A stretch of 64,000 bases of DNA from Marsupella aquatica (taxonomy: Eukaryota; Plantae; Marchantiophyta), in NCBI GenBank assembly GCA_973895155.1, contig OZ316893.1:4578977-4642976 (forward strand). Reading direction: 5' to 3'. The position numbers were made by a program, and so were the translations under genes. This document shows positions 3,831-34,338 of the stretch, in pieces. Under the pieces are notes generated by a model. It saw nothing but the letters and a program-made list of their open reading frames with translations, was not told where the DNA came from and did no database searches. Numbering within the stretch: the first letter of the stretch is position 1; every line of letters starts with the position of its first letter.

Positions 3831-4260
3831 TCTAAGGAACAAAGCAATCATCAACATACACCAATGCAGATCAAACATACATGCAAAATGAATCTACAAC
3901 ACCATAACACTAGTACTTATGTACAGGATCCATACTAGTATGAGACCAATCTGGAATATGAAAACAGAACATGAACCTGACAACTCCATCTACTGAATCA
4001 AATTTGCAATAGACATATCAACACACACATCAGCTTGCAGTCTGGCCCCAGTCCTAGATCACGCATAATTCTGACATTATGCTCTATGTTCCGATTTCGG
4101 GCCTCCTCATAAGGATTCACAGAATGTGACAACCCTTGCAATCTTCCTTTCACAGGCTGCATTCACCAACTGCACAAATGGATAAACCATTAGTCTGATT
4201 TCATAAATAGTCCATACATGTAGTCCATCTATGGACTTCACACACCTAGCTAAAACCTAT

Positions 4261-8851: not shown

Positions 8852-9511
8852 TCAAATCCAAGATATGTGGCTCCTAGCAGGAGTGCCTAGTGTAGGGTCA
8901 ATGTCATGGTCAGGACAGTAAAACATCCCCTTCTTGGGCTGCCCATGCGCTGAGTGATCCCAAATTGTTCGATCATGGGCAAATCCCCTCTGCTGGATAA
9001 ACAGCAGGCAGTCTTTGTGCCATGCCTTAGGACACCTCATGCACTGAACCAAAAAGCCATTAGCCCCATCATTGGGCCCCTGTCCACAAGTAAGACAAAT
9101 ATGGAGTCCACATGATGCTGTGCCAGGAACCAAACACTGCCGACAGTAAAACCGGGCACAGAGAGAGTCTGGACATTTTCTTACCTCTTCACCAATTTTT
9201 CCAGACACATGGCACTTAAAGCAAGAATGTTCCTCATTCTTGCAATCAACACAAAGCCATTCTCCAACATGGCCATCAGCGAGGGATATAGTTGGGCATA
9301 GCCATTGCTGACCCAAAGGACAGGAAACATTCTTATGGAAATGTCGGTGGCAAGGCCCATCACAAACAATGAGATCCCCTCCCTCATCACAAATCGCACA
9401 TACATGTGGACTATTCTGGTTAATCTCAATGTCTGAATATAAGGACAATTGAGGTGCTTGAGAGGATTCACCTCTGCAACGATTCATGGCCTTCTGCTTA
9501 TTGCGAGCCAT
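8852..9511 (-). CDS. Stand-alone EDM2/NSD-type composite PHD-finger protein (~219 aa) inside CACTA element 1
   Basis: CAICDEGGDLIVCDGPCHRHFH...WLCVDC...HSCFKC...KC...C.RFYC..C...CGLHICLTC...QCMRCPKAWHKDCL...RTIWD...FYCPDHDIDPTLGTPARSHI. This follows the plant EDM2 PHD cassette, including its C-terminal YC..H.ID..L.TP.R.H motif. Splice acceptor at ~9515 and ATG at 9511. The ORF is uninterrupted. Confidence 0.85.
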   Translation of the reverse strand: MARNKQKAMNRCRGESSQAPQLSLYSDIEINQNSPHVCAICDEGGDLIVCDGPCHRHFHKNVSCPLGQQWLCPTISLADGHVGEWLCVDCKNEEHSCFKCHVSGKIGEEVRKCPDSLCARFYCRQCLVPGTASCGLHICLTCGQGPNDGANGFLVQCMRCPKAWHKDCLLFIQQRGFAHDRTIWDHSAHGQPKKGMFYCPDHDIDPTLGTPARSHISWI

Positions 9512-11849
9512 GGTCCTGCACACTCAGACCCTACATCAGATTGTGAAACAAGAAGGAATAACAGGGTGCAGTATGACACAAAAGAATGAGGGTGCAGCAT
9601 AAAATATGACATGTAACCACAAGGGTGCAACATAAACCAATGCTTTATAGATGGCAAAGCATTTAGGACTGAGCAGCGCAAATAACCTTGGCCTAGATGA
9701 TTGGAAGCAATCACAAATATTGCAACCTGTATGCCTTTGCTTGCTGTACAGCAGTGCTCACTCACCCTGCCTTTTTAAAATCTGTAAGGGCAACACAGAA
9801 AAAATAGCAATTGAGTTTCAGCAAAGCATTCATTTGGCTCTCAAGTTTTAAAATGGACAGAGCAAACACAACAATGTGCACAACAAAGCACAGAGAGCAA
9901 CAAAACTCCAGCAAACTGGGACTCAGGCAAGAGATACGAATTTTAGCAGCGAAATCAAATCAAGATTCGGACCTGTGAGTTCAACATGCAGTGCTCACTC
10001 ACCCTGCCCTTTTTTAAATCTGTAAAAATCAAGTTTTATTGTGTGCCTTCTACATCTTAAGCTGCTGCACACATCTGTTACAGAACCATAAGTTGCTTTA
10101 CTCTCAACAAGCTGCTGGTCCACCCACTTTTTCAAAAGCTGCACCGTACTCTATCTTCGTGCACAAATGACTATACCGGGCTGCTGTCAGAGACCCTTAC
10201 GAAGGATTTAAAATTGACCAAGCTGATTTTAGTTTAGTTTTGTCCAGTTTGCAGACCAAAGGAAATCATGTGGCTGTATTCATGGAGTTGTATTCATTGC
10301 TGTGTATGGATGTTGTGTGAACATCAGACAGTTAGCTGTAAATTACCATAGTTGAAGAGCAAGGCTTGTACAAAAGCCACTAAGGAATTCTCTGAGGTGG
10401 CACAGCAGTTGGCAAACCACACACGAAACTCTGAAACTTTTTGGCGACAAAATTCTACAGAGTCGCTGCTGGAATCAAGTGAGGATTCACCATACATGCT
10501 TGCACTTCTCTTCAGTAAAAAAAAGAGAAAAGAAAAGGGCTATGATACAGAGGGATGTCAAAAGAAGAGTAAGGAAACCAATTCATTGAGGAACATAGAC
10601 AGACTAAGGAAAACATCATACAATGGAAAACTAAGGACTACATTGTAATAATAAGAGATCAAGCTCACCTTGCACCACAAACATTGTCAGACGACAACAA
10701 GACAACAAACTGAATTGAACATAGCAGACAAATCCAACAAGTAGCAATCAGAAATCAACAGCAGACAGACAAAGGACAACTTGGTCAGAACTCGGGCACT
10801 TGATTCAGTTGTGGTAAATAGCTGTTCAGGTTCTGGACAAGCAAGAGCAATACGTGAGCAGACTCCAGAAAAATCATCTCTTGAGATTGAGGAGAAAGGC
10901 ATTTCCCAGCCAGCTTACTTATGTCTTGAAAAATGTATCGGACATCGTGGACGCTGGGCCTCAGCTGCTGGCCGCAAGGGAAGATTTTGCCAAAACAAAC
11001 AATAAAGCTCGAAGATAGTTAAATTTCTTAGGTCTTTCTAAATGGGGACTGAATTAGCAATTAGAACCAGTAAACCCTGATCTTGGGCAGGCAGAGAGAG
11101 AAGAGTCCGCGCCTAATACTTATGTCTACCCGAATTTTACTGGGACATATGAGCATTGGGATGCCATTGCAAAGCAGAATTTTGTAGCAGTGGAAGGAAT
11201 CAACATAGATAGCAGTGGAAGGTCGCAGTGGAGCTAGCATGGTACAGGGAAGGAAATGCAGGCATTGTGCGAGAAAGTGCAATGGCTAGTTCTATGGGAT
11301 TTCCTTCTCCAATCCATGACAGTGCCGACGACACGCACAACTGCTACAATCAGTGCGCGTCCAGGATGCTCCATCGCATCACGTCAGGGAACTCAACATT
11401 CTAGACATTCGAAAACTGCATTCACATTTCTCTGCAAAGGGAACTCAACATTGTAGACATTCAAAAACTGGTGCAAAACTCAGGCACTTAGAGAGAGAGG
11501 GACAGAGAGAGAGCGAGAAAGAGAGAGCAAATAGTCTCTTAGCAATCGGAGCTTCTCTGTCATTGCCATAAGCATACTAGCAGACACTAAGCAACAGAAC
11601 AAGAAGGCAACATTGGATTCATGGACTGACAGCACATTGGTAGCACATTGGCAAAAGCAAAGCAAAAATGCAGAATGAACAAATGGCCAGAAGGGGAAGA
11701 AGCGCAAAATTGCACAACTGACCTTCTCGCACCTCAGCCCAAACTCGCTCCCACAGATATAAGTTCTCGCAGCTCCTTGATGGAACCTCCTGTAGGTTCT
11801 CGCCGATTGCAACTCCTCACCCACAGCTTCTTGCCGATTGTAGCTTGCT

Positions 11850-12030
11850 GCTGATTGCAACTCGTCGCTGATTTGCAGCTCGTCCTCCGCTCCTCACCCG
11901 CAGCTTATCGCCGATTGTAGGTCGTCCTCCGCTCCTCGCCCGCAGCTTATCGCCGATTGCAGCTCATCCTCCGCTCCTCACCCGCAGCTTATCGCCGATT
12001 GCAGCTCATCCTCCGCTCCTCACCCGCAAC
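11850..12030. repeat. ~41-bp GC-rich tandem repeat, probably in the 5' leader of element 1
   Basis: tcctccgctcctcacccgcagcttatcgccgattgcagc occurs about 4 times. Confidence 0.85.
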
Positions 12031-12599
12031 AATGACAAATGTAAAGAAGCTATTGCCTTGACCCTGCAATCGGGCACTCCAAAGCCCGAATGTCCTCCAA
12101 AGCGCAGGGTCCTCCAAAGAAGCTCCCAAGTCCTACCGAGGTGCTCCGCCGACCGCGCGCAACAAGCTCAAAAACAATTGTAGCCTGAATGGCTTCGGGT
12201 CGGAGCTCCTCCTCTAAACCTTGCAAATGGTCACTAAAACAATGCCACGTCCAACGCTTCACTCAAACAATGCCTCACCCAATGCTTGCCCGAACAATGC
12301 CTCGCCCAACGCTTCGAAGGGTGTCGAAGCTTGGTGGAATGGAGCACAACGCTGCGCAACCCTAAGCCCTTGCAATGTGCACACAAAGGCATGCCAAGAA
12401 ATGAGCACATCGAGCGTTGCCCTCTCGATGTTTTTTCAGGAAAAAGGGCTCCTGTTGGTACGCAAGAACACTTAGCGGGAAAAACCTAATGCTAGACCCC
12501 TAAAGCCCGTAAAGGTAAGGTATTCTGTTGGATGGGGATGGTGGATATTGTGGGTCATTAATTAGGGTTATATTCTGACAATATCTCTCACATGTCTGG

Positions 12600-12785
12600 A
12601 CCCCCCATAAGGCCCTAGGGAAGTTGAGACTAGGTTAATAACAATGTAAACCCCCCCCCCCATAAGGCCCTAGGGAAATACCAACTATAGAGGTTAATAA
12701 CAAGGTCCGGACGCCCCCATAAGGCCCTAAGTAGGGAAGGCAAGGTTAATAACTCATAATGTCACGACCCCCCCCATAAGGTCAT
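12600..12785. repeat. Four ~55-60-bp repeats (ccccccataaggcccta...ggttaataac), possible promoter-proximal element
   Basis: Copies at ~12601, 12655, 12714 and 12768. Confidence 0.7.
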
Positions 12786-13149
12786 GGCTGTTTGTGTAGG
12801 TGCCAACAAGAATGTTAAGGACCAATGTTATATATAAAAAATGATGCTAGCGATATAAAAGGTCCGATATATGCCCGCGATATAAACCCATAACCCGCAT
12901 GCATGAACACCATTTTGGACTACCTTATTGTCTCACCATATGATAGTGATACTCATCCAAATATTAGCATTTAATAGCTCTCCACTCCTGACTCAATTGA
13001 GAGAAACCCTCATTCATGACTCAAGCACAATTATAGGGTCCCTTACATGCTACATGACCACTACATATGAGGCTATGTTGTGTAAGAGTTTTTGAGAGCA
13101 TTACACCAAAGCATTAATAAGTGAGCCTTCCCATGACTATATGACCTCC

Positions 13150-16100
13150 AATATGCCAACATTAATGGCTTCCAATATGACAGCGTGAGTGACCCCACGT
13201 TTAGTCCTCAGATTGAAGCACCATTTAATTCACAAATGACCCAATGAACTCCCTTGTACCTCCAAAGAGAACCCCCCAATAGCCTTTGTAAAGACCACAT
13301 TTCCAGTCATTTGGTACTTCTGACCTCTAGTATGACAACCAAGATTACCCTAATTTGAGGTGTTTCCATTAATGACACACCATGAGGGACCTCTCTAATG
13401 ACCACATATGCAGTCAATTGCTCCAAATGACCTCTAACTGACTACCAAAATGACCCTTATTGTAGTCATTGACATTAATGACACACATTATGTGAAAATG
13501 ACCCAATGAAGAGTATACTACCTCTCGGAGTGCCCCTTTACAATTCCTTTGGAATTTAATAGAATATATCCAAAATCCAAATATTGGCACAAACATGACA
13601 TAGTTATATAGAAGGACATAGTCTTCCACTAGTATTGCACTATATACCTCTTGGAGAGACAAAAACAATTTTTGTATGCATGCCTTAGGATGGTATGCAT
13701 GCATGGTGACACTTTTGGCAAATCACTCCAAAGTTGTATGACTTGGGAGTGATTTCCCCAAGGTTGCATCATCCCTTAAGTAATTGCAAAAACATGGCTC
13801 CAAAGTGCTCATGGTGCAACTAGTGGTTGGAGAATAGTACGGTGGGTATAGTACCCCGCACCTTGTGGAGAGGTTGCCACCTTCATGTAGAGCCCCATGG
13901 CACACTAGGGCCACCTTAAGCTCCTAGACCCAAAAGGGTCATTTCTGATGGTACGTAATGACACCATGAGGGACCTCTATAATGACCCCATATGGAGTCA
14001 TTTGGCACAAATGACTTCCAAAAGGACTGCCAAAATGACCCTCACTGCAGTCTTTGGCATTAATGACACACTATTCCTCCAAAATGACCCAATGAAGATT
14101 ACAACACCTACTCACAATGCCTTAAGTCTATTCATATGCAAAATGGAGTATTCCCCATCCAAACACCGGCACAAACATGACACAATTACATCACAAGATG
14201 ACAACCTTCCATTGGTGTTGCGCTACTTCTTGGAGAGACAAAAAATGGCTCCATTTGCGCTTGGATACGGTGGTATGCATCCATGGTGACACTTTTGGCA
14301 AATCACTCCAAAGTTGTATGACTTGGGAGTGATTTCCCCAAGGTGCATCATGCCTTAAGTAAATGCAAAAACATGTGTCCAAAGTGTTCATGGCACAACT
14401 AGTGGTTGGACGATGATGAGTATAGTGTCCCGCACCTAGTGGAGGGGGTTCTCACCTCTATGTGGGGCCCCATGGCACTCTAGGGCCCACCTCCAGCCCC
14501 TAGCCCCAAACTGGTCATTTGTGCTTCTGCTTAATGATTGCACAAGGGACCCCTCAAATGACCACAAATCCAGTCATTTGACTTATGTGACAGCCCATAT
14601 GACAGATTTAATGACCCTACTTGTAGTCATTGGTATTTATGACACCAATTTTTTCAGAAATGACTCAATGAAGATTACACTACCTTCTTGAGTGCCCCAT
14701 CACTATTCATTTGCAAAATAGAATATTCCCCATCCAAACACCGGCACAAACATGACACAATTACATGGAACGACAACAGCCTTGCACTACTTCTTGCAGA
14801 GACCAAAAAAATGGCTTCATTTCCTTTAGATAGGATGGTATGCATCAATGGTGACACTTTTGGCAAATCACTCCAAAGTCGTACGACTTGGGAGTGATTT
14901 CCCCAAGATTATATCATCCCTTAAGTAAACACAAAAACATGGCTCCAAACTGCTAATGGTGCAACTAGTGGTTGGAGAATAGTAATTATAGTATTTGACA
15001 CCTAGTGGAGGGGTTGCGAGCTCTATGTGGTGCCACATGGCACTCTAGGGCCCACCTCCAGCCCTTAGCTCCAAATTGGTCATTCATGCTTGTCTTCAAT
15101 GACTGCACTAGAGACCCCTCAAATGACAACAAGTCCAGTCATTTGAATTATATGACATCCCATATGACCAATTCAATGACCCTACTTGTGGTCATTGACA
15201 CTTATGACATGACTCTGTTAAAAAATGACCCAAAGAAGGTCCTAGCACCGCCAGAGAGAGCCCGCTCTACATTCCTTGCAAAAATGGAATAATCGTATAC
15301 CTTTAAACATCAGACACATCATAGAGGGAAGCACCACTACCACACCCATTCCATTGGTGTTGCGCTACCTCTTGGAGAGACAAAAAAGGGCTTCATTTGC
15401 GTTTGGAATAGTGGTATGCATCCATGGTGACACTTTTGGCAAATCACTCCAAAGTCATACGACTTGGGAGTGATTTCCCCAAAGGTGCATCATGCCTTAA
15501 GTAAACGCAAAAACATGTGTCCAAGGTGTTTATGTCGCAACTAGTGGTTGGACAATGATGAGTATAGTGTCCCGCACGCAATGGAGGGGTTCTCACCTCT
15601 ATGTGGGGTCACATGGCACTCTAGGGCCCACCTCCAGCCCCTAGCCCCAAACTGGTCATTTGTGCTTTTCCTTAATGACTGCATAAGGGACCCCTCAAAT
15701 GACCACAAATCCAGTCATTAGACTGATATGACTTTCCATATGACAGTTTTAATGACCCTGCTTTTAGTCATTGATATTTATGACGGTCCATTGCTCACAT
15801 ATGACCCAATAAAGGCCCTGGTACCTCCAAAGAGAGCCCGCTTTAGATTCCTTGCAAGGTTGGAATATTCCTCTTCCCTAAACCCGCACCCACACCATAC
15901 AGGGAAGCACGACTCCCCTGCCCATTCCATTGGTGCAGCACCACCTCTTGGAGAACCCAAAAACAACTTTTATTTGCCTTTGTATGTGATGGTGTGCATG
16001 CATGGCAACACTTTTGGCAAATCACTCCAAAGTCGTACGACTTGGGAGTGATTTCCCCAAAGGTGCATCATGCCTTAAGGAAACACAAAAACTTGTGTCC

Positions 16101-17955
16101 AAGGTGTTTATGTCGCAACTAGTGGTTGGACAATGATGAGTATAGTGTCCCGCACGCAATGGAGGGGTTCTCACCTCTATGTGGGGCCCATGGCACTCTA
16201 GGGCCCACCTCAAGCCCCTAGCCCCAAAATGGTCATTTGTGCTTTTCCTTAATGACTACATAAGGGACCCCTCAAATGACCACAAATCCAGTCATTAGAC
16301 TGATATGACTCTCCATATGACAATTTTAATGACCCTACTTTTAGTCATTGGCATTTATGACGGGCCATTGCTCACATATGACCCAATAAAGGCCCTAGTA
16401 CCTCCAAAGAGAGCCAGCTTTAGATTCCTTGCAAGGTTGGAATATTCCTCTTCCCTAAATCTGCACCCACACCATACCCTAAAAGCATGACTCCCCTGCC
16501 CATTCCATTTGGGCAGCACTACCTCTTGGAGAACCCAAAAACAACTTTTATTTGCCTTTGTATGTGATGGTGTGCATGCATGGCAACACTTTTGGAAAAT
16601 CACTCCAAAGTCGTACGACTTGGGAGTGATTTCCCCAAAGGTGCATCATGCCTTAAGGAAACACAAAAACATGTGTCCAAAGTGTTTATGTCGCAACTAG
16701 TGGTTGGACAATGATGAGTATAGTGTCCCGCACCTCGTGGAGGGGTTCTCACCTCTATGTGGGGCCCCATGGCACTCTAGGGCGCACCTCCAGCCCCTAG
16801 CCCCAAACTGGTCATTTGTGCTTTTCCTTAATGACTGCATGAGGGACCCCTCAAATGACAATAATTCAGGTCATTCCACTTATATGACATCCAATGTGAC
16901 CATTTTAATGACCTTTCTTGTAGTAATTGGCATTTATGACGGGCCATTGCTCACATATGACCCAATAAAGGCCCTAGTACCTCCAAAGAGAGCCAGCTTT
17001 AGATTCCTTGCAAGGTTGGAATATTCCCAAACCCTAATCCCACAGCCACACCATGCTAAGAAGCACGACTCCCCTGCCCATTCCATTCGTGCAGCACTAC
17101 CTCTTGGAGAACCAAAAAACAGGTTTTATTTGCCTTTGGATGTGATGGTATACATCCATGGTTGCACTTTTGGCAAATCACTCCAAAGTCGTACGACTTG
17201 GGAGTGATTTCCCCAAAGGTGCATCATGCCTTAAGGAAACACAAAAACATGTGCCCAAAGTGTTTATGTCGCAACTAGTGGTTGGACAATGATGAGTATA
17301 GTGTCCCGCACCTAGTGGAGGGGTTCTCACCTCTATGTGGGGCCCATGGCACTCTAGGGCCCACCTCAAGCCCCTAGCCCCAAAATGGTCATTTGTGCTT
17401 TTCCTTAATGACTACATAAGGGACCCCTCAAATGACCACAAATCCAGTCATTAGACTGATATGACTCTCCATATGACAATTTTAATGACCCTACTTTTAG
17501 TCATTGGCATTTATGACGGGCCATTGCTCACATATGACCCAATAAAGGCCCTAGTACCTCCAAAGAGAGCTAGCTTTAGATTCCTTGCAAGGTTGGAATA
17601 TTCCTCTTCCCTAAACCTGCACCCACACCATACTGAGAATGCACCCACACCATACTGAGAAGCATTACTCCCCTGCCCATTCCATTGGGGCAGCACTACC
17701 TCTTGGAGAACCAAAAAACAACTTTTATTTGCCTTTGGATGTGATGGTATGCATGCATTTATTTGCAAATTAAAATATTCCCCGTCCAAACACCGGCACA
17801 AACATGACACAATTACAACAAAGCATGACAACCTTCCATTGGTATTGCCCTACTTCTTGGAGAGACAAAAAGGTTTCATTTGCCCCATGGATACGATAGT
17901 ATGCGCGCATCCATATATGATGACACTTCTGGAAAATCACTCCAAAGGTGTATGA
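13150..17955. repeat. Internal ~578-bp tandem array (~8 units) of CACTA element 1
   Basis: The anchor cacttttggcaaatcactccaaag recurs near 13709, 14289, 14856, 15431, 16009, 16586, 17165 and 17924 (diverged). Confidence 0.92.
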
Positions 17956-18039
17956 CTCTACAATTATGATAGGTGTCTGGAATGACTATTGAGTATTTTA
18001 ATCTTCATATCTCTTGGGTTCTTTAATGACTCTATAAGT

Positions 18040-18911
18040 AGTCATTTATGTAATAAGTCCATAATGACTGTATGTTATTGTAAACATTGATATATCCTGA
18101 TTTTTAGATTGCCCTATATTTAGTCATTTATGCGACAAGTCCATAATGACAGTATGTTGTTGAAAACACCAATATATCCTAATTTCAAGATTGACTGTGG
18201 AGTTAGTCATTTATGAGAAAAGTCCATAATGACGGTATGTTCTTGTAAACACTGATATGTCCTAATTTCAAGATTGACCCTAGAGTTAGTCATTTATGGC
18301 AGAAGTCCATAATGACAATATGTTGTGTAAACACTGATATATTCTCATTTTCAGATTGACCCTAAATTTTGTCATTTATGAGAGAAGTCCATAATGACGG
18401 TATGTTCTTGTAAACACTAATATGTCCTAATTTCAAGATTGACCCTAGAGTTAGTCATTTATGGCAGAAGTCCATAATGACAATATGTTGTTGTAAACAC
18501 TGATATATTCTCATTTTCAGATTGACCCTAAATTTTGTCATTTAACACCGTTGGTTAAAATGACGATAATACATTTTTTGTCATTTATCACCGTTGTCCA
18601 AAATGATGCAAATAGATTTTTGGTCATTTCAGTCATTGTCCAGAGTGACTATAATGTTGCTAAACACTGATTTATCATTGTTGTTATTAATTGTGTCATT
18701 TAAGACATGTGTCTAAATTGACCATTTAGGGAAATTGGGTCATTTTGGTCGCATCAGTCATTATAGACATTATACAAAATGACGAAAAAATTAACATTTT
18801 GTCATTTCAGTCTATTGGTCATTGTGGACAGTCATTCCCCCGTCATTCTTTTTGTGTCATTAAAACTTTTGGTCATTTATTCATCTCTGTCATTGGGTGA
18901 TTGGTCATAAA
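18040..18911. repeat. Right subterminal region: six 82-83-bp units, then GTCAT-rich sequence
   Basis: gtcattta starts at 18041, 18123, 18206, 18289, 18371, 18454 and 18537. Confidence 0.88.
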
Positions 18912-18932
18912 GGGCCCTGTTTTCTTCTAGTG

Positions 18933-20515
18933 GTGTGCCCAACATTTATGGAAGTGTGTCATAAAGTATTTTTTACCTAAGATGTGCTAATCTTGGCCGT
19001 TGACAGTCCTTGGATTAGTGAAAGGACTGGAGACTTTTTTGCCTCTTTCAAAGGTAGTCCTCAATCATGCAATCCACCCTAACTATAATTATATGTTGTA
19101 ACCCTAGACCTTGAGTAAATACCTAACAACCATTTTAATGACCCTACTTTTAGTCATTGGTATTTATGACTGAACTTTGTTTGGAAATGACCCAATGAAG
19201 GCCCTAGCTAGTACCTCAAAGAGAGCCCGCTCTAGATTACTTGCAAAATTGGAATATTCCTATAATTACCCTAAACCCGCACCCACACCATACAAGGAAG
19301 CACGACTCCCCTTCCCATTCCATTGGTGCAGCACTACCTCTTGGAGAACCCAAAAATAAATTTTATTTGCCTTTGGATGTGATGGTATGCATCCATGGTG
19401 ACACTTTTGGCAAATCATTCCAAAGTCGTACGACTTGGGAGTGATTTCCCCAAAGGTGCATCATGCCTTAAGCAAATGCAAAGGCATGTGTTCAAATTGC
19501 TAATGCCGTAACTAGTGGTTGGACAATGATGAGTATAGTGTCCCACACACAGTGGAGGGGTTCTCACCTCTATGTAGGGCCCATGACACACTCGGGCCCA
19601 CCTTAAGCTCGTAGACCAAAAATTGTCATTTATGCTGGTCCATAATGACACCATGAGGGATGTCTTGAATTACAACTTATATAGTCATTTGGTCAAAATT
19701 AATGACCTCTAATATGACTATTGACATTACCCTTATTGCAGTCATTGGCATTCTTCAATGACTCTACAATTATGACCGGTGTCTGGAATGTCTATTGAGC
19801 ATATCTCTTGGGTTCTTTAATGACTCTATAAGTAGTCATTTATGCAATGATTTCATAATGACTGTATGTTATTGTAAACATTGATATATCGTGATTTTTA
19901 GATTGACCCTATATTTAGTCATTTATGCGACAAGTCCATAATGACAGTATGTTATTGTAAACACTGATATATGCTAATTTCAAGATTGACCCTAGAGTTA
20001 GTCATTTATGAGAGAAGTCCATAATGACGGTATGTTGTTGTAAACACTGATATATTCTTATTTTGAGAGTGACCCTAGATTTTGTCATTTAACACCGTTG
20101 GTTAAAATGACGAAAAAATATTTTTGTCATTTATCACCGTTGTCCAAAATGACCCAAATAGATTTTTGGTCATTTCAATCATTGTCCAAAGTGACTATAA
20201 TGGTGCTAAACACTGATTTATCATGGTTGTTATTTATTGGGTCATTTAGGACATGTGTTTAAATTGACCATTTAGGAAAATTGGGTCATTTTGGTCGCAT
20301 CAGTCATTATAGACAAATGACCCAATTTTGGTCGCATCAGTCATTACAAACATTATACAAAATGACGCAAACGTTATCATTTTGTCATTTCAGTCTATTG
20401 GTCATTGTGGACAGTCATTCTCTCGTCATTCTTTTTGTGTCATTAGAAATTTTGGTCATTGATTTATTTTTGTCATTGGATGATTGGTCATAAAGGGCCC
20501 TGTTTTCTTCTAGTG
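18933..20515 (-). mobile_element. Right end of a second, same-family CACTA copy (probable outer element)
   Basis: One array unit (19130-19750), the same subterminal block with fewer 82-bp units, and an identical TIR ending at 20515. Confidence 0.85.
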
Positions 20516-20992
20516 GACTTAGTTCTAGTCTACTCTCTTATAAAGAGGGAAAAATCAGTTTGGTTTTTCTTTCCAGAACTTCTCGTTGAGCAATCATATT
20601 GGTAGCAGTCTTTACCCTCCCCTAGACCAGAGTCAAGGGGGAGATTGTTAAGATTTACTATTAGGTCTAGAGTTACGATTGTATCGTAGTTAAGGCTAAT
20701 CTTAGTTACAGACTTGGTTAGGTTAGTCATGCTGTGCACACTCTATAACCAAGCGGTGTTTGCTTGGAGAGTGGGAACCAGGCTCATTGTTACGAAGCTA
20801 GTTGAGAGATAAAGAGAGCTTGTACTGTGGATGCTTGGTATGGCCGGTCAGCCTAGAGTGCAGTAAAGCTCTTGTGTGTTCCCAATGTGGACGTAGCCCC
20901 ATGTGGAGGTGAACCACGTATCTCTCTGTGTTGACTCTTATGCGTTGGATGGTTCATGAGCTTGCCGTTGCGATTGTCGTCTATGCTCAACA
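20516..20992 (+). mobile_element. Ty1/copia 3' remnant: PPT plus ~347-bp LTR (20646-20992)
   Basis: tcaagggggagat-TGTTA is a typical copia PPT/LTR junction. The LTR-type motif ggacgtagcc...gaaccacgta is present and the LTR ends ...ctcaaCA. Confidence 0.75.
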
Positions 20993-21216
20993 CATACCCT
21001 CCCGGCCCCTTGCCCCCCTTCCCCCCTTCCCCCCATCCCCCCCACCCCCTTCTTTTTCCTTCTTTTTCTTTTCTTTTCTTTTCTTGTCTTTGTCTCACTG
21101 ATAAGACTGAGTGTGCACTAATTTTATTGATAATGATTGTAATATTTGCAATTAGACTCCTCTCATGATGTAGCACTTCCTATGCATGGATGATATGGCA
21201 TGGAGCATAATATAAC

Positions 21217-21373
21217 ATGGATGGTAGAGGGAGGAGCACTTTGTATGCATGAATAGCATTGATGGATGGTAGAGGGAGGAGCACTTTGTATGCATGAATA
21301 GCATTGATGGATGGTAGAGGGAGGAGCACTTTGTATGCATGAATAGCATTGATGGATGGTAGAGGGAGGAGCA
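21217..21373. repeat. 45-bp tandem repeat, 3.5 copies
   Basis: atggatggtagagggaggagca at 21217, 21262, 21307 and 21352. Confidence 0.9.
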
Positions 21374-21849
21374 TGGTGTGACATGGAAGGTAATTATAAA
21401 GGGGAAGACTTTGTACTTTTCTTGCTTGGAGAAGCGTGTTCACACCAAACATAATTAAAGGCATTCACCTTTTATTATACATAATTCACCCTTTATTATA
21501 CTTTATGATTATGCAATTTATTTTTCACTGTTAAACAGTGACACTATTTTTGGTGAAATAAATTATGTGTTCCAATCCAAATTTGGGAATGAATTTTTAT
21601 CTTTGCTGAAATTACAATTGTAACTAAGTCATAATTTCCTTCTTTGTATTTTAAGTTTTTGTACATCCTGTTTTGAGGGCATAGCGTCCCATTTTTAAGG
21701 ATAGAATTAGCTGGCTATAGGATCACAAGCGAGGAAAGATAGTGTTAGTAATGTGTTACTGGCTATTGGAACTGGGCTCAGGCGTAACAATGCCGATGAT
21801 GTGGTACTGACTATTGGCTCACGAGCAAAAGTAACTGTGAGTCATTTGT

Positions 21850-22007
21850 GAGGGATTTACTTGGTGGGACCCCAAATGGAAATGTTTTACTTGATAGGAC
21901 CCCTGAGTGATCCAGGCTGTTGATTTACCTTGAATAGACGGACCCAAACTTTCAAGGGTCCTATCAAGTAAAACATTTCCGTTTGGGGTCCCACCAAGCA
22001 AATCTCT
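21850..22007. repeat. Inverted repeat/hairpin (~46-57-bp stem, ~45-nt loop)
   Basis: 21861-21906 is the reverse complement of 21952-21997 with 2 mismatches. Confidence 0.9.
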
Positions 22008-24977: not shown

Positions 24978-25554
24978 CTAAGGCGTACACGGAAGGATGC
25001 AACAGTCGTTCACCTTAACGAACAACTGGAGGTTGATGTTGAACAGATACAGTCCATCCTCCAGTGCTTTAAATACGCAGTCCACACAATAGAAAGGCAT
25101 TTTGGCTCGGTAGCTATCATCTGCCCACACTACTCTCTTTACTCTCGCCTGAGCATTGTAAAATGGTGTGGTAAATGTACATTCATAGAGCACATGCTGA
25201 TTGTTTGGATCTATTTGCTCGAGGAACCAAGTACTGCGTGTCATTTGGGGAACAAACTCCTTGACAACAATTGGGGTGTTAGGGGTCGATGCTGTTAACG
25301 CACTGGACGTCCACTTGGTTTTCCAAAACGTTCAGTAGGTCAAACCCAGGTGGATAACCGAGTTTGACACCCGCGCCTTCGTCATTCTCCTCTGCAGATT
25401 TATTGTCCAGTGGCACCTCGAAAGGTTGCCCCACAGATTTTCGGTCAGGTTCTAACTCTGCAACCACACGGGCATCCACAGACAAGTCCGGGCCAGTAGT
25501 GGCTAACGCAAGAAGCAGCACACAGGCTAGAAGACTGCGACGAAAGTTGCCCAT
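24978..25554 (-). pseudogene. Secreted cysteine-containing protein, S-protein homologue (SPH/Self-incomp_S1)-like, with a +1 frameshift
   Basis: Signal peptide MGNFRRSLLACVLLLALA, then N.L...V.VQC...W...LYECTF...VVW...CVDCVF....DGLYLFN. The two ORFs join if one base is removed from the C-run at 25282-25285. Confidence 0.5.
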
Positions 25555-28046
25555 GTTCAAGTCTGCAGAAGGTAAGTCTTGTCAGATGCAATCGATAAGT
25601 TGATTGATCATGAGTATCAAGTGTTAAAAAGCTTTACTCAACTATTGGAAGGAAGCAATTCATGGAAACCAAGGTATTCGATTTGCTATTGTTATAAGGC
25701 AATGAGGATCCCAACTGCACTAATCCGACGGTATCGCTTAATTACTTCTTAGTGCTGTACTCTTCTGGGCGTCACTCTAACTCAAGGGTCGATGACCTAC
25801 GCGCAACCTCACAAACTTGGTGCTGTTTCAGATGGACCGCTCGGTCGCTCTTTCAAAACCGAATGCAAAGATCTCCTCCCGTCTTTCCTCAAATAGGGCA
25901 CGCTCAAACAGCTGGGTCAGTTGTCAGCTAGAGACATGTTTCACAGAGTGGTTCAACAAGCGCAAACACTAAAGGTGCGACTTAGGTTTATCTGACGGGG
26001 AACGTGGATAGGAAGGAGACCCTGGTTTGTGAGCTTGATAATTATTTTGTCATATGTATATGCTCATATGCTATGTAGTCACACTTAAGCTTGCATGTGG
26101 TACGTCTCTCCTGAATCGCACATCCAAACATTATGCCTTATTCCATAATTTAGTTATGTAGTCAGACCTAAGTTTGGAGGCACTTCGTCAGCCTCACATC
26201 CAAATTAACATTATGCATGCCTTATCACATATGGTATCTATTACCATGGTATTTGTTTCCCTCCGTCACCAGGTATTAATTTCAAGAACGGACCAAAGAA
26301 GGGGAAAGAACGATTGTAGAGAATGAACGGGAAGGTCAGAGCACAATAGACTTACACGTACTGCTAAAACCATACGTAACTGCCCATGGACTGTCACAAG
26401 ATGGTAAATGGCAAGTTACATGGGAAAGCTAACTCATAGTCCAGGGATGCGATTAATGCTTCGTAGCGGGCGCGCCTACATATAGAATCTACCCCGGGGT
26501 CTACACCTCACCAAGCCTACCTTGCTCTAACCATAGGTAATTAAATCAGGTAGATCAGTTAGGAGTCTTATAAAGCTATGTAAAAACGATATGGAAAGCT
26601 GTAAGGCGAAGCAACACCATTTGTACAATTACGCGGCTCAATTTTGGTTGGCATTGCATCAGGCTTCTGTAAAGGATATATCCAGCCATGGGCCTACACC
26701 TCGATCACCTGTCACATTTCGCTCTAACCGTAGGTAAACTGATTGAGCCACATGGATGGCGAGTCTCCTCTACTGCAGATCTTAGTATCTCCTCGATCCA
26801 ATAAGGAGAGACTGATCCATTACTCTGGACTATGGCTTGCATTCTAGCTTTGAAGATCCCGTGTAGATCGAATTCACGTACTACTCCAATGCTGCCCTAT
26901 TCCCGGGGGTACAGTTGTTAGTCAATTTCCTTCCTGTGGTTGGTTAGTATTTGATTCAACTACGTACCTTGTCCAGGGAAGGATGTTAGGAGATGCATTT
27001 TTAGTCAATTTCATCTCAGTCGTTGGTTAGGGTATATTTGCTTTAATACGTGGTCCAGGTAAGGAGGGCACTTGCTTTTTTAATTGGCCATTGATCACTT
27101 CGGATCAGTTCTCCTCTCCATACGCCCGAGCAGAGTATATAAGTAGGGCCGCTTGTCATTCTCTCTCATTCTCCACTTCTCTCTCTTCGCGCCTGGCTCA
27201 CTCACCCAGAGCATCGATCACGTTGGTGCCCATCAACTTAACTCCTCACCTTATTCTCACCAAGAGCTGCAGTAGTGTGATCGATCGAGCTTGAGCTTTA
27301 GTTTGTGCTTACCTCCTAGCTGGAACTAGCTAGTACATGCAGGGAAAAGTCCGAGACTAGTGCACTAGCAAAGGTGGGCTTTTGGACCAGATTGGAGGAC
27401 CAGTACGAATTTTAGTCTCCTCTTCACGCCCTTTCAATTAATTGATTCAGGTGCAGTCTCTACTCACGGGTGATGCAGTTTTGCAACTCTCCTCCATGCA
27501 TGACCTCGAAGATTTTGCAGGATTGACTGTCGATCGGTAAAAGTTGAGAATTAATACATAATCTAATGGCAACCATGCATGCTTTTGTTGTGGGCCAATG
27601 CTATTTACTTCCTCTCTGGAGTGATTCTCCTTCTAGAACATCCCAACTGATTTCATTTGCTTAGGAGACCCATAACCCAGATTCTTATTCCATTATCTTT
27701 CATTCTAGCAGGTTTGGAATTTTTTGTTGTTGTTAACTACTGCATTCAGCTTGCACTAGCTTTATTCGTCGTTTCCTCCATATATATATCATATGTATCT
27801 TGCTCCATATGTTACTCTACCCAAGAAGCTCTTCAATTCTCCATGTCGATCTTTGAAGTTTGCGTGGCAGAACTCTCATACCTACGTGCTTCAGGGCTAC
27901 GGAAGATAATATTGATGTACAGCTATGGCACTTAATGTCCAATGAGCTATATATGTACTTTCTCTAATCTGATTGAATGTGGTAACATATGTCCATAGGT
28001 TTTCCGATCAAAGACGTACATTAATTCTCCAAGGAAGTCACAAGAA

Positions 28047-29165
28047 ATGTCTTCACGCATGGAAGAGCTGCTTCCAGGGATACCAGACGACGTGACCTTG
28101 ACCCACATTATCACGAAGTTGCAGTGGACAGACTTTCATGAACTGCATTCAGTGAGCCCGAATTGGCAACAAGCAATTCAAAGTCGAGAGGTCTACAATG
28201 AGAGGATTCGGTCCCAATCAACAGAGGAGTTTCTGGCCGTGAAACACAGCTATGAGGTGAAGTGTAACGATATCCTCCACCGTGACTGTACATACAGAAA
28301 CGCGATTTCTCTTTATTCGATGAGGGACAAACAATTCTACAAACTTCCTCCAGTCCCACATCTTACTGGTGACAAGGAAAGGTTTTGCCAGTTAGTTGCA
28401 TCCAGTGGTAGCTTGTATGTTTGTTCTCACAAACAGAAAAATTTACTACACAGCACAGAAAAGAACGGCAATAACCAAAGACAGATGCTGGATGAGGAAG
28501 AGGAAAACGTTTATGTGCTAGATCTGACTGGGCCAGGGCTCTGGGAAGAATGCAAAAGGATTCAAGGACCAGAACGGGACAGCCCGCGTTGCTTGATCAA
28601 TTGCCATTTCCGAGCAGAAGGTCAAGCATGTCATGAATTTCGATGGAAAGGGCCCGGGGACTGGTGCCCAGATCGCTTCAAGTCTTTCTGGAGCGTAGTT
28701 GATTCAATGACACTAGAAGAGACTTCTGAGATGGTTTCTTTGAAGGAAGTTCCAGAAATGTGCTTCACAGGTGACCCAAGAAGGGTCAAAGTAGAGCTTA
28801 AACAGTACGTGATGACAAGCCCTACCAGTGGATACCCGAAGGTTTATGTCCACGATACCAATACCAACTCATGGACACACCAGCATTCCGTTTCATGTAA
28901 TGAAATTGCTGGTGAACTTGGAGACGATCCCCATAGCCAGCTCAGAATTCACCCGACTTTTGCAGTGCCTGTTGGAGGCGAGGTTCTGACAATAGCTCGC
29001 TGGACAAGAGGGGGACAGAATAGCTACGAGCTTCTGCAAAGCAAGGGAATGGATGCGACAGAAATTGTCTGGGAGAGAATCCCACACACTTTTCCCATCG
29101 AACCAAGCCTTTTTTTTTGGCATATGCCCCATTTTGCTTTGAGCAATATGAAGCAGCTGGTCTAG
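28047..29165 (+). CDS. F-box protein with a degenerate kelch-like C-terminus (intronless CDS, host gene)
   Basis: N-terminal LLPGIPDDVTLTHIITKLQW...L.SVS.NW..AI.S..VY..R F-box. Kelch-like strands KLPPVP...LYV and VYV.DT.TNSW. Upstream TATA-like tatataa at ~27136 and 5' UTR introns. Confidence 0.85.
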   Translation: MSSRMEELLPGIPDDVTLTHIITKLQWTDFHELHSVSPNWQQAIQSREVYNERIRSQSTEEFLAVKHSYEVKCNDILHRDCTYRNAISLYSMRDKQFYKLPPVPHLTGDKERFCQLVASSGSLYVCSHKQKNLLHSTEKNGNNQRQMLDEEEENVYVLDLTGPGLWEECKRIQGPERDSPRCLINCHFRAEGQACHEFRWKGPGDWCPDRFKSFWSVVDSMTLEETSEMVSLKEVPEMCFTGDPRRVKVELKQYVMTSPTSGYPKVYVHDTNTNSWTHQHSVSCNEIAGELGDDPHSQLRIHPTFAVPVGGEVLTIARWTRGGQNSYELLQSKGMDATEIVWERIPHTFPIEPSLFFWHMPHFALSNMKQLV

Positions 29166-32100
29166 ATGCAACCTTTTGCCCCGGCCTGTCTTGAGTTGCA
29201 TTGGAGATTTGGCCAAGAGCAAGTGATATAAGGGAACAATATATTCGTGCATAGCAAACTTTCGATAGCAGTTTTCCTGTTAGTATTCATAGTAGTAGCT
29301 TTCCAGATATCCTTTGCTCGGATTGGCGGGATTTAGAACTGGCAAAGTAACTGTTACTATTGAATACCTACCCAAGATAAGTAAATACATGCTGTAATTT
29401 TGGAAGTTGAGATATTATTTTTGTTTCAGAGTGTTATGGAGATTTCAATCGACACGTACTAAACAATTCCATTTGGATGTTGGATTTCCATGTTGATCAA
29501 AGCAGAAACTTTTCACATGTATACCATATTGTAATATTTATGCCCATAAGCTGTAGCAATTGTAGAGTGGTATCCACAAGAATGAAATTAAATGTTTATG
29601 CATACACTGAGTAGATGTCTGGGAAAAGGCTGACAGCATATTAATATATAATTATCCTGCATTTGCTATAGCACACAACACAATCATGGAACAAGTCACG
29701 CAGTAGTTGAAGTCTAGTAATGCCTTAATTTCCAAATAGTAACAAAAGTTTCTCGCAAATTAAAGTCTTCGATGCAAATTTCTGTGCTCTAAAAGTTTCA
29801 CTTACTATATATACTATTTAATGGATGTCATTGGCAACCAATGCCACAATTGTGCAGTCAATTTCACAAGGCTGTGTACTGTAGTAAAAGCATTGTAGTT
29901 ACAACTTTCCAAATAGTTGAAAACATGACTCCCCAAAACTTCACCAAAACTCAGTCAACAAGGTGTGACTAACATGACACCAACAACCTTGGAGTCACTT
30001 ATTTCTGAAGGTCTTGTACGTACAAGCGGGTGTACAAGTCATGTAGAAAGGCAAGGTCTCACAATGGGTGGTTTTCTTCTAGTGACATGATATTAGGAGA
30101 TTAATAAAACTTGGTTACTTAGATTATAGACTTTTGTCCTAGATGGTGCACTCACCTTAAATACAGGGTAATTCCAAAATCATCTAGCGCCACAGAATTC
30201 AGGAGAGTGAAGACCCATATATGAAGACTCCCACAAATGACTCAGTTAAGGTCATCACGTTGAAGTTATACAAGTGACTCTACAATACAGCATTATGTAT
30301 GAGAGCACAACATTTGAACCCTTCACCCTAAACTATGGAATCTATGGGATCCGACCCAATACATATGATTTTGGATACACCTATATCACTAGTACATTTT
30401 TGGCCCTTTTTCCGATCCTAACAACATCGGACCCCTTCAAAAATTCTGACACGGAAAAATGACACGTCCGGTGTCATTTACTTTGCACTTTCCCATACTT
30501 TACACATTGGATATTGACAATCAGACACCCATCGGACTTTCCATTGCTGAAACCATCGATAAATCCGTTATTGGATGTTTTGGATAATTTGTGTCCGTTT
30601 CTCATTTCATCGGATACTAAGATGCTCCGGCAAGGTAAATATCAGGGGTCCGGTGTATTTTATATGGGATAATCTGACGTAAAATATATCGGAGTTTGCG
30701 TACAAGCATTCAGTATTGGAACATCCGTAATTGTTTCCCAAATTGTTTGTAACACCAATTGCAATGCTGAAAAATATCGAACATTGTGAGGAGGGGTCCA
30801 AAATATTTTACATTGGAAGTTCTGTAGCGTGTGGTATTGGATATGAGCTGGGTCACTGGCTCGACTAATAATGGATATTTAGGGTTTGTAGGGGGTTTAA
30901 TACCGGATTCATGGGAATCATTTGGGGGTTTAGGTTTAGGGTTCAGGCTCATTGACAAAATAGGGTCCAAAGAGCATGCTCAAAGCAAGGTAGTGGTTTA
31001 ATTAAATATCAGTTTTCACAATGGGGAACACTCCAATATGTACAAAATGAAATGGGCCTAGATAGGCAGTAGACCCCCGGGGTCCTCACTTTTTAACTTC
31101 CGACCCATCACGCGCGAATAAGTGTATGGTTTTTTAATTCAATTTTTTGGAATACTTAAGAATTTTTGTAGAAGAACTTTAGGGGTTGCGAAATACATAT
31201 TGCAACTTAGAAGTCTAATAGGGGTGCAAAAAACCCCACTTCTTCAATGTAAGCTGTTAGTTTAAGATAGGGCATGTTTGGCATGGACATATATGGGGAA
31301 CACATGTCCATTAATAACTGGTCCACGTGGCACATCCATATCTAAAGAGGTTACTTAGTGTTATAGGGTTTCATGGTGGCATTGAGGGACATATTAATTT
31401 GAATTATCTGGGCAAGAGGTGGATGATCCGAGAGGGGGGAAGGGGAAAGGAGAAGGCTTAGGGTGCAAAGTGTCAAACCCATTCTCCCACATAGACGTTG
31501 GCCTGATATTGGATTGATCGCAATTCCATCCATCCGTCCATTTTTGGGGATCTAATGGTTTACATTGCCTGGCCAGTTTTAGGGAAAATGTGATTGGGAC
31601 CGTTGGACGAAAGACTCCTGTTTTGCAAAGGGAGTGCACAAGGGAGCCGCGAAGTAGGTGCTTTGTGCTCGCTGCCTCGTGGTTTTTTTGAAGGAACTGC
31701 ATGCGCATACGTATGGTGAGGGTGCTGTCTCATTTTTTTCGAAGGAAATCAAGCTACGCAAAGCTTGGGACGGTGCTGCCTTGTTTTTTTCATAAGGAAA
31801 TGCATGCGCAAAGTGCCTTTGCAATGTTTGAGCTGTAGCTAGATGTTCCCTATATGAGCTGAAGGGTGCTGCGGCCATTTTTTAGCAATCTCAGGGGTGC
31901 TGCGGCTGTATTCTGTTTGTCTGAAGGTTGTGGACCTCAAGCAATCTAGGTGCTGCGCTCGTGTTCGGGCTGGGTGCTGGGTGCTGCGGCCGTGATCGAT
32001 GTGGGCTTGGGTCAGGTCTAGACATTGCTTCAATCAACTTTTTTGAAGGAATGCTTACACATAGGCTGGGCGCTACGGCTCTATTGATCGAAGGTGGCAA

Positions 32101-32224
32101 CTGCAAGTGTGAGTGAGGTGCAGCTGAAGTCCTGGCTGAAGTCGATCGGGAGTGAAAGTGATCGGGCAAGTGACACTATGGGCGAGACTGTCGGCGCTGC
32201 GGGTGTGAGCTGTGGGTGCTGGTG

Positions 32225-32480
32225 GGATCAAGCTGGAAGGGCTAAGCGCAAGCTTGAAGGTGAGCTTGAAGGCTGGGGCGAGCTTCAAGGGCAAACCGCA
32301 AGCTGGAAGGGCTAAGCGCGAGCAGCTTGAAGAGCAAGCTTGAAGGCGAAGGGCGAGCTGCTTGAAGGTGAAGGGCGACATTGAAGGCTGGGGCGAGCTG
32401 GAAGGGCTAAAGCGCGAGCAGCTTGAAGGGCAAGATTGAAGGCTGGGGCAAAGGGCGTGCTTGAAGCTAGGCTGGGGCGA
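32225..32480 (+). repeat. GC-rich short tandem repeats (gcttgaagg / ggctggggcgagct) upstream of the second PHD gene
   Basis: Multiple degenerate copies are visible. Confidence 0.75.
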
Positions 32481-33839
32481 AGGGCAGAAGCACAGATCGT
32501 CTTTGCAATTCCAACTCAAGAGGTATTTGAAATCTTGGAGCCAAAATGCTGTCGGCCCATTCTATTTTGCTCAGTTTCTCCCTGCTATTCTTCTTCTATA
32601 GACTTTGCTTGCAGTCAAATGATTTCTGCTCTCTCCAATTGCTGAGTATGAATTGATTTTTCTCCTTTCGTTTGAGCCCCGGTTTGAGCTCTTTCCTTCT
32701 TCTCGAGCTCCTCCCGGCTTCAATTGAGCTGCCCATCAAGCTGCTTCCTCCAATCGTGAAGCTTCAATTGAGCTCCTCTCTTTGTTTGCGCTCCTTGCTT
32801 CCATCAAGCACAGTCTTGATCAGGGGGCGATTTTGTATCAGGCTGTTGTGATTGGCCTGCTGTGATCGAGGGTGATTACAAGATCTAGAGAGTGAAGCAT
32901 AGGAATATTGTCATAGTGTAGACAATCAGTACACAGACCTTAATAATCTCTTCCAGAAGGTCCTCCAGATGCATAATGTGAAGCATTCATAGTGCCCTCG
33001 ATTAGCAACAGCTGCCGTGGCTCTCTCTATATAGGCTGTCGAAGTCACTTGTCTGAGGCTCTCACTACTTAACTCATTCAAATACAATGTTGAGCATTGG
33101 AAACTTTGTAATGACTAATCTGCCTTATGAATGGTGATTGAAATGATTTATACTCAAAAAGCAAAGGCTTTGATTGACATTCATATGGCATTGGGTTGCA
33201 CGGTGTTGTGCAGCTGTCCAATAAGAGGAAAGTGCAGCTTGTTTTGATTTGTTTAAAGTCTATAATCTAGAACGTACCAGTAGTTGCCAAGGTATGTTAA
33301 ATTTTGACTCAGTTACTTGAATGGCTAGTTTGATTCCCTGCTTAACTTTATATCCAGATTTCCATGCATGACTGGAATTGTGTACTGTCTGTAAAAGTTA
33401 GCTACTGTTCCTTCTTCTTCTTGTGTATTTTGTTTTATTGGATGGTTTATTGTAGATCTTCATGTGCCTGTGTCTTCCTTTTTCTATTTAAACTCCTTCA
33501 AGCAATCATTTTCCAGCAGGAATGAACCTGGCTTCAGTTTATTTCCTTCAGATCAAATAGTCAGCTCTTCATAAATTAATATGCTAACTCAACTCTTCTT
33601 GCAGGATGGATTTGTTGCGGGTGTAGTGGAAGCATTTCAGAAGCTTCAGCAATATACAGTCAGGGTTCACATTCAAAAATTGTGGAAGGAGCAGACCTCA
33701 GTCAACTATCACCAGTAAGTTGTTGCATCTCTTATTACATCAGAGATTAAAGGTATGCTTATGTTCAGGATGCTATCAATGTAGAATGGATGTTGAGGGG
33801 ATGTAAAATGGATGCTGAGTGAATGCATCTGTTTTGCAG

Positions 33840-34338
33840 AGGTAAATCACTATCCAGCAAGTTGAGATGGCTTCTGATGTGCAAGTTGAGATGGCTTCTG
33901 ATGTGCCAAGGATTGACATATTTTCCCATACGGAGCACCCCTTGCTGTTTCTTTTGTGATGAGACAGATGATGTCGTCCTTTGTGATGGGCCTTGTAGTA
34001 GACATTTTCACTTTGTTGGTGGAAAAGGTATGCAAGGACCTGCTTGCACTCCTGTCACATTGCCTAAAAACAATGATTGGAGGGCACCATGGGTTTGTGA
34101 ATTGTGTGCTGTCAACAGAGCTAGATGCTTTGCTTGTGGACTCATTGGCAGATTTGAACATCCCACAGCACAGGAATCCCTTGTGCTCCATTGTGCCCAC
34201 CCTCATTGCTTTTCTCATTACCATCTTGGCTGCCTTAGGGTGCTACTTCAGGTTGGGGCACTGCCTCATAGGTCTCATCCAGCAAGTCCAAACAACCTAA
34301 TGTGCCCAAGGCATCACAAGGAAGATCTGCAAGGTTAG
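33840..34338 (+). CDS. Second EDM2-type composite PHD protein (last exon, ends after the CPxH motif; possibly frameshifted near 33940)
   Basis: CFFCDETDDVVLCDGPCSRHFH...C...WVCELC....RCFACGLIG...VLHC.HPHC..HYHLGCL...MCPRH. Shares CDGPC.RHFH with the 8852-9511 protein. Confidence 0.75.

Follow-up and report, generated by a model that had tools for sequence, protein, structure and literature searches.

Stand-alone EDM2-type PHD genes beside CACTA and P-element-like transposases in the liverwort Marsupella aquatica: a candidate transposon-borne histone reader

The stretch of DNA analysed here, 64,000 nucleotides of contig OZ316893.1 from the liverwort Marsupella aquatica (assembly GCA_973895155.1, positions 4,578,977 to 4,642,976 of the forward strand; hereafter the window), contains two genes for PHD fingers of the type found in the plant protein EDM2, each lying upstream of a transposase gene. 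PHD-A is intact and belongs to a CACTA transposon, element A. PHD-B belongs to a putative element B, is followed by a gene resembling P-element transposases and has been interrupted by a third transposon, element C (Table 1). An earlier note on this DNA had described two dissimilar CACTA elements, each carrying an EDM2-type PHD gene as a recurrent, retained module.

Table 1. Features of the window (o/e, observed/expected ratio; ORF, open reading frame; TIR, terminal inverted repeat)
Feature	Position	Strand	Basis or remark
Element A left subterminal ATGAC/GTCAT repeats	1..640	.	35.9 motifs/kb vs 2.5 background; left TIR beyond window
Element A downstream exons, TnpA-like by position alone	995..3893	-	ORFs
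Element A CACTA transposase TnpD, three long open frames	4261..8254	-	Pfam
PHD-A, stand-alone EDM2-type PHD cassette, 219 aa, intronless, intact	8852..9511	-	ORF and Pfam
Element A CpG-rich short-repeat block	11720..12400	-	GC 0.557, CpG o/e 0.92, tandem repeats
Element A internal ~578-bp tandem array	13400..17900	.	Repeat spacing
Element A right terminus CACTAGAAGAAAACAGGGCCC, inward reading	18912..18932	-	Second copy's end at 20515
Candidate left terminus of element B with TCCG/CGGA repeats, CACTAGTACATTTTTGGCCC	30387..30920	+	
Element B CpG-rich short-repeat block	31580..32523	+	GC 0.538, CpG o/e 0.72
PHD-B 5' part, fingers 1-2, frameshift near 33933	33868..34314	+	tblastn of P0054
Nested element C, 21.9 kb, CACAAGGA termini (17/20 matching), 3-bp CAT duplication	34315..56239	.	
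SNF2/RING helicase gene of element C	about 35400-37304	-	Pfam SNF2-rel_dom, Helicase_C
Divergent CACTA-like transposase of element C	40445-44376	-	Transposase_21 E 7.9e-6, under cut-off
PHD-B 3' part, third finger, second frameshift near 56340	56240..56469	+	tblastn of P0054 residues 153-222, E 6.7e-14
P-element-like transposase, N-terminal third, frameshift at start, cut at ~58262	56680..58263	+	Identity to P0168

Element A is a CACTA/EnSpm element by three features: a TnpD transposase, a CACTA terminus and motif-rich subterminal regions on both sides. Its TnpD frames match Pfam Transposase_21 (E 4.6e-66) and DUF4218 (E 8.7e-36) past the cut-offs and DUF4216 and Transpos_assoc below them, and a Pfam scan of the downstream exons returned no matches. 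The terminus, CACTAGAAGAAAAC, is present at 18932 and at 20515, and ATGAC/GTCAT motifs reach 32-37 per kb at the ends of the element against 2.5 per kb across 21001-64000. No partner terminus occurs within the window, the left end lying beyond it. Read on the minus strand, the order is right terminus, tandem array, CpG-rich block, a 2.2-kb leader, an acceptor-like splice site 4 nt ahead of the PHD-A ATG, PHD-A, TnpD (starting about 600 bp downstream of PHD-A on the same strand) and the downstream exons. PHD-A is thus 9.4 kb from the nearest terminus, with the ~578-bp tandem array in between. The CpG-rich block has a donor-like site at its end (11722) and is likely to be a non-coding first exon. 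Each unit of the tandem array contains an imperfect palindrome of about 50 bp. The two copies of the right terminus (18912-18932 and 20495-20515) lie 1.6 kb from each other, and each has subterminal repeats and an 83-bp array to itself; a solitary right terminus of the same type (CACTAGAAGAAAAC, inward) lies at 30066-30084, 300 bp ahead of the element B terminus; none of the four candidate left ends checked fitted it.

The PHD-A reading frame (9511-8852) encodes 219 amino acids with zero internal stops. PHD-A and PHD-B (33934-34314) both contain the motif CDGPC.RHFH and both exceed the Pfam PHD_NSD cut-off of 23.9 bits, with 33.5 and 29.7 bits respectively, bearing out the EDM2-type assignment of the earlier note; PHD-A additionally passes the PHDvar_NSD cut-off. 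Homology matches of PHD-A include NSD2 and NSD3, and a Foldseek search with its AlphaFold model (pLDDT 75.9; residues 1-20 below 50) recovered PZP and NSD tandem PHD domains, several of them bound to H3. Profiles, NSD2/NSD3 matches and fold together identify tandem atypical PHD fingers of the NSD/EDM2 type. Only PHD matches are found in the 219 residues, which are without the N-terminal RFD and the C-terminal domains of full EDM2, whereas DNMT1-RFD is present in long host EDM2-like proteins. No DNA-binding domain is recognisable in the PHD-A protein.

PHD-B is a pseudogene, dead in this copy. In a tblastn search of the window with the full-length relative P0054, residues 1-27 and 22-154 matched in different frames (57% identity), the alignment following 33891-33956, then 33940-34317 in the other frame, then 56240-56448. 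The lesions number three: two frameshifts and the 21.9-kb nested insertion. The frame 33840-34338, taken for the gene in the earlier note, did not hold, as the natural start lies in another frame and the ORF terminates within the inserted element; a direct homologue search using it returned 0 of 13 candidates, and the PHD-B relatives came from a profile search.

About 210 bp past the PHD-B stop, on the same strand, is a gene matching the first third of P0168, a protein of 1529 aa from Calypogeia fissa (31% identity, E 6e-57). The window copy is without the catalytic part, and P-superfamily features were seen solely via this full-length relative: residues 600-1180 of P0168 scored 0.95-0.96 with P-element/THAP9 clusters in the Atlas search, after two unnamed clusters at 0.96-0.97, and PF21788, the P-type GTP-binding insertion, matched at E 0.058-0.13, under the Pfam cut-off. 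The Atlas search with the window's own fragment gave leads all below 0.9, and a PDB sequence search with P0168 found nothing significant; a single-sequence model of the P0168 core (pLDDT 34) was not used. This transposase family occurs in the window's plant and in C. fissa, and the Atlas clusters nearest to P0168 are unnamed and, among those of known phylum, mostly basidiomycete. The transposase of the PHD-B carrier therefore appears to be P-element-like, not CACTA; no TnpD-type transposase was found for this carrier, the nearby TnpD-like gene lying within insertion C.

The candidate left terminus of element B at 30387 reads CACTAGTACATTTT (also written CACTAGTAC). TCCG/CGGA occurs 13 times in 30387-30920, and 238 sliding segments covering the whole window, this stretch included, peak at 12, 11 and 8. 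None of the 35 TAGTG ends rightward in the window partners this terminus (best 11/20), and the right end of element B may lie outside the window. P elements have a TIR pair and an 8-bp target-site duplication (TSD) (PMC7776569, in excerpt). Continuity suggests that the 30387 terminus belongs to one element with PHD-B and the P-like gene, with no TIR pair or TSD to delimit it. The CpG-rich block of element B has a donor-like site at its end (32523), and an acceptor-like site is located 28 nt ahead of the PHD-B ATG.

With insertion C discounted, element B repeats the layout of element A. Both carriers present a terminus, a CpG-rich block that has a donor-like site, a leader, an acceptor-like site, an intronless PHD gene and, 200-600 bp downstream of that gene on the same strand, a transposase, in that order. 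As one carrier transposase is P-like and the other CACTA, the recurrence of the PHD gene would cross superfamilies. Much of the arrangement described in the earlier note is upheld: the termini (CACTAGAAGAAAAC and CACTAGTACATTTT) and subterminal motifs (ATGAC against TCCG/CGGA) differ, GC-rich repeat blocks precede both PHD genes and both genes point inward from the nearest terminus. Leaders do precede the PHD genes, but their AT-richness is mild (GC 0.38-0.43 against 0.44 for the whole window). Two of its points are not borne out, namely the presence of two CACTA elements, since the transposase at 40445-44376 belongs to insertion C and the neighbour of PHD-B is P-like, and the TIR-defined limits of A and B, neither terminus being paired within the window.

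The location of the PHD gene directly upstream of the transposase, on the same strand in both carriers, also suits a transposase cofactor, which would bind TnpD/TnpA or the P-like transposase and tether it to marked nucleosomes for insertion-site choice or as a licence for cutting. The RAG2 PHD plays such a part for RAG1. The missing DNA-binding domain in PHD-A lends this explanation some weight, in that selection of such a protein at element level could be explained by a partner that the same element encodes, and the 30% identity between A and B leaves room for separate interfaces; furthermore, fusions of PHD and chromo readers to transposable element proteins are frequent (bioRxiv 10.1101/2021.11.30.470311, in excerpt). 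However, the two transposases come from different superfamilies, and the PHD frame closes with its own stop, its relatives terminating at the same place, which argues against an in-frame transposase domain. A cofactor is rated unlikely, and the occurrence of the PHD gene beside unrelated transposases favours a role that would be independent of the transposase.

PHD-A has stand-alone relatives, termed here family A, as PHD-B has in family B. A word-based search with PHD-A found three relatives of 213-225 aa with 53-83% identity, and 585 proteins reached E <=0.001 in a profile search; among the best 150 of them, the top five were short (166-245 aa) and ranked above the long EDM2-like proteins. 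Across nine family-A proteins, 35-85% identical to PHD-A, 39 of the 168 ungapped columns never vary, and Cys or His fills 22 of these 39. PHD-A is 30-37% identical to ten host-type cassettes, all from other species and not the window host's own EDM2, and 30% identical to PHD-B. The transposon cassette shares with plant EDM2 and EDM2-like proteins (the ASI1-AIPP1-EDM2 system) the same atypical PHD fingers with a long loop past the first His, and family A shares the motif YC..H...TP.R.HI. It differs from EDM2 in its length of ~220 aa, in being intronless, in the missing RFD and C-terminal domains, in a reduced acidic run ahead of finger 1, in a His-to-Cys change and shorter loop in finger 2 of family A, and in its place within transposons.

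The 19 family A/B clusters looked up are all without organism name or accession, whereas 10 of 11 host-type clusters are named genes, for instance from Marchantia and Riccia, or EDM2 of Physcomitrium and Cryptomeria; the longest contigs of the family A/B clusters are 0.9-13.4 kb. The nameless clusters fit repeat-borne genes overlooked by annotation, a fit that falls short of proof. Metagenome scans for the genomic context of family-A relatives gave none at first and then locus L001 alone, which was dropped as a 23-aa match with no TnpD or P-like match, and viral and prokaryote scans for the DNA context of relatives confirmed 0 of 47 and 0 of 16 candidates. These empty scans, the decay of PHD-B and the truncated or frameshifted appearance of several relatives would be expected if the cassette were Pack-type cargo, a piece of EDM2 captured passively and doing nothing for the element, or if the relatives were ordinary small host genes. 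Such an origin is nevertheless highly improbable in view of the intact PHD-A, its low identity to host EDM2-like proteins, the derived features found family-wide and the naming contrast just given. Moreover, CpG depletion of the PHD frames (o/e 0.25 for PHD-A, 0.08 and 0.24 for PHD-B) tracks their own transposases (TnpD 0.23, P-like gene 0.17) and not the element C transposase (0.54) or an F-box-like gene (0.56). The hallmarks of Pack-CACTA cargo are not found, given the low host identity, the conserved zinc ligands and a carrier with long open TnpD frames. As a member of a stand-alone family with kept zinc ligands, and with 30-37% identity to host EDM2, PHD-A does not appear to be a decaying fragment, and the case named by the earlier note as refuting its proposal, a near-identical, single-copy, decaying piece of host EDM2, fails for A.

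From about 156 proteins, 66 were hand-picked as rows of the tree, with guessed group labels that were name-checked for 11 host-type clusters. Families A (99/93) and B (100/100) fell within a clade of land-plant EDM2-like proteins (99/98), in line with the earlier note, and the green-algal and NSD-like rows fell outside it. The approximately unbiased (AU) test did not reject placing A and B with the NSD-like outgroup rows (p 0.243), which leaves an NSD-like alternative. EDM2 descent of family A is supported by an independent character, the C-terminal motif YC..H...TP.R.HI: it occurs in 35 of 40 plant EDM2-like rows and 8 of 12 rows of family A but in none of the 11 outgroup rows, and no family-B row (0/3) has it in full. 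The tree, and for A the motif, support the EDM2-type assignment of the module. One or two capture events are both compatible with the tree, as A and B group together with support of 88/83 and placement of B with liverwort paralogues is not rejected (p 0.373). A shorter liverwort EDM2-like paralogue of ~700-770 aa (P0010, P0011 and P0012; for example Marchantia Mp1g03210) terminates shortly past the PHD cassette, and both it and family B have a DPP motif ahead of finger 1. This paralogue is a candidate donor.

The N-terminus of family A suggests another mode of action. After the Met, PHD-A reads ARNKQKA and P0001 reads ARTKQKAYK, and several family-A proteins have AR[TNP]K, so family A might act mainly as a histone H3 mimic, baiting H3K4/K9 writers or readers or docking on its own PHD as a switch. 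When scored against the first five residues of H3, at least 4 of 5 matched in PHD-A, the near-identical P0001 and P0154, P0015 and P0099 (5 of 23 family-A rows); P0007, P0051 and P0113 match at 3 of 5. None of 147 other proteins and none of 2520 Met positions reached four matches; in the six frames of the window 1 of 2396 Met positions scores 4, and the start of PHD-A itself scores 4. Yet the resemblance was noticed post hoc among related members, 14 of the 23 family-A rows (some of them fragments) score 2 or less, the full-length P0002, P0003 and P0156 are without the tail and so is family B. A MART start also occurs in three other EDM2-like proteins, one from Riccia, the tail had no match in a PDB sequence search, residues 1-20 fall in the low-pLDDT part of the model and the tail may be a plain nuclear-localisation signal. 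H3 mimicry as the main activity is accordingly rated decidedly unlikely.

The reading preferred here, held at a little short of an even chance, is that the transposon-borne EDM2-related cassette engages H3 tails or host readers and so keeps its element transcribed despite silencing. A single promoter in the CpG-rich block would feed both the PHD gene and the transposase through alternative splicing. The PHD protein would engage either histone H3 tails or their host readers and, as a reader-only protein without the RFD and C-terminal domains of EDM2, may compete with or redirect host H3K9me-linked readers, so that transcription of the element persists. Host EDM2 alters H3K9me2 and transcript levels at transposable elements (PMC3632883, PMC7529245), and polyadenylation is a process on which it acts jointly with ASI1 and AIPP1 (PMC9292364, PMC10241880), according to excerpts of these papers. 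It also represses some elements, such as Mu1, and promotes others (PMC3632883, in excerpt). The repression, together with the upstream position of the PHD gene, could also point to a self-limiting regulator, which would recruit host silencing or, as an upstream cistron, lower transposase output. An upstream cistron would need no conserved zinc ligands, however, and the cassette is without the other domains of EDM2; self-limitation is thus judged very unlikely, and anti-silencing appears to be the likeliest role.

Retention of PHD-A is indicated by public contigs from four runs of three coded organisms, in which 30 of 30 bins of 600-13400 were covered. In run X1 PHD-A lies within a single contig of depth 701 (8414-9614; 3 gaps, 4 letters differing), beside depths of 800 for a TnpD contig and 750 for a downstream-exon contig; in run X3 the PHD-A bins stand at transposase level (78-93k summed) and the leader at 3-4k, more than 10-fold lower. 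On a fair reading, PHD-A would accompany the transposase in most related copies and be better conserved than the leader. Both variants listed within PHD-A (2/2) are synonymous.

Several points weigh against the preferred anti-silencing role. Contig depth is not copy number, run X1 is possibly the window's own source sample, and two variants do not suffice to test for selection. Of the recurrent, retained module proposed in the earlier note, the part concerning A stands, as a retained and multi-copy-like gene, while B is a dead copy, and the evidence is limited by one intact copy in view. The unity of element B rests on continuity, transposon linkage of the family-A relatives is putative, the AU test tolerates an NSD-like placement and family B is without the full C-terminal motif. 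With no DNA-binding domain in PHD-A, nothing confines the benefit to its own element. The ligand may also differ from that of EDM2: the acidic run ahead of the first Cys of finger 1 has shrunk to 1-3 Asp/Glu per 16 residues, against 6-9 in RFD-type and algal rows, and a His replaces the Asp that in AIRE, two residues before the first Cys, has a role in H3K4 reading.

Of the CAC..GTG pairs listed window-wide at >=15/20, only that of element C has an exact TSD, and the CAC..GTG (CACAA) termini, 3-bp TSD and Tnp2-like transposase (a weak Transposase_21 match) of this element are EnSpm-like. Its gene blocks lie on both strands, divergently, and the SNF2/RING gene is a second chromatin-related cargo. 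Assignment of PHD-B to the SNF2/transposase block was rejected, as that block interrupts PHD-B. The plus-strand ORFs of element C (47848-54664) gave no convincing Pfam match; a 158-bp tandem array is found close to its right end (55221-55885), and ATACCCC-type repeats occur close to the left end too (35149, 36071). At 58262-64000 a TG-starting insertion, at a guess a retrotransposon, cuts the P-like gene and is followed by coiled-coil ORFs, with an inverted duplication of 60227-60977 and 63246-64000 (87%). Two probable host genes lie between the elements, one (24978-25581) for a small protein of secreted type that weakly matches S1 self-incompatibility (E 0.025) and the other (27999-29165) an ORF that is F-box-like by eye, with zero Pfam matches.

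VANC of VANDAL elements and TnpA of Spm are transposon-encoded trans-acting regulators of their own silencing. They are sequence-specific DNA binders, whereas PHD-A has no detected DNA-binding domain and its anti-silencing activity is predicted. The RAG2 PHD is a histone reader recruited by a transposase-derived recombinase, but the EDM2-type genes here are stand-alone, as they are in comparison with the PHD and chromo readers fused to transposable element proteins, likewise histone readers recruited by transposons (bioRxiv 10.1101/2021.11.30.470311, in excerpt). The closest precedents are these fusions and the TET/JBP dioxygenase genes, separate chromatin-related accessory genes found in 11 fungal DNA-transposon lineages, which move between superfamilies and are likely anti-silencers (PMC12730594, in excerpt); TET/JBP is an enzyme acting on DNA methylation in fungi and the PHD cassette a non-catalytic histone-reader module in a plant. 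The main text of the bioRxiv paper gave no match for CACTA or EnSpm, although its fusion table may hold such elements, the main texts of PMC13547354 and PMC13317346 gave no match for PHD or EDM2, and PMC11982613, in excerpt, held nothing relevant. Titles and abstract openings elsewhere mentioned no transposon-encoded EDM2-type PHD gene, although supplements, Repbase and subscription papers could hold such elements. Transposon-borne chromatin accessory genes are thus already known, and the EDM2-type PHD variety appears undescribed in the literature searched.

The boldest form of the proposal, that at least two superfamilies of plant DNA transposons share an old mobile EDM2-derived mini-reader that counters silencing, to which the CACTA family has added an H3-mimicking tail, is unlikely as a whole. 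The 220-aa PHD protein is expressible and lends itself to peptide arrays and to trials in a model bryophyte, and the cassette is a natural minimal EDM2 PHD module for finding the ligand of that reader. Known plant transposon counter-defences (VANC, TnpA) work through DNA sequence; if the reading is true, a retained EDM2-derived reader with an equivalent position in two unrelated transposons would be a candidate for a counter-defence that works instead through histone marks and through the machinery for transcription across heterochromatin.

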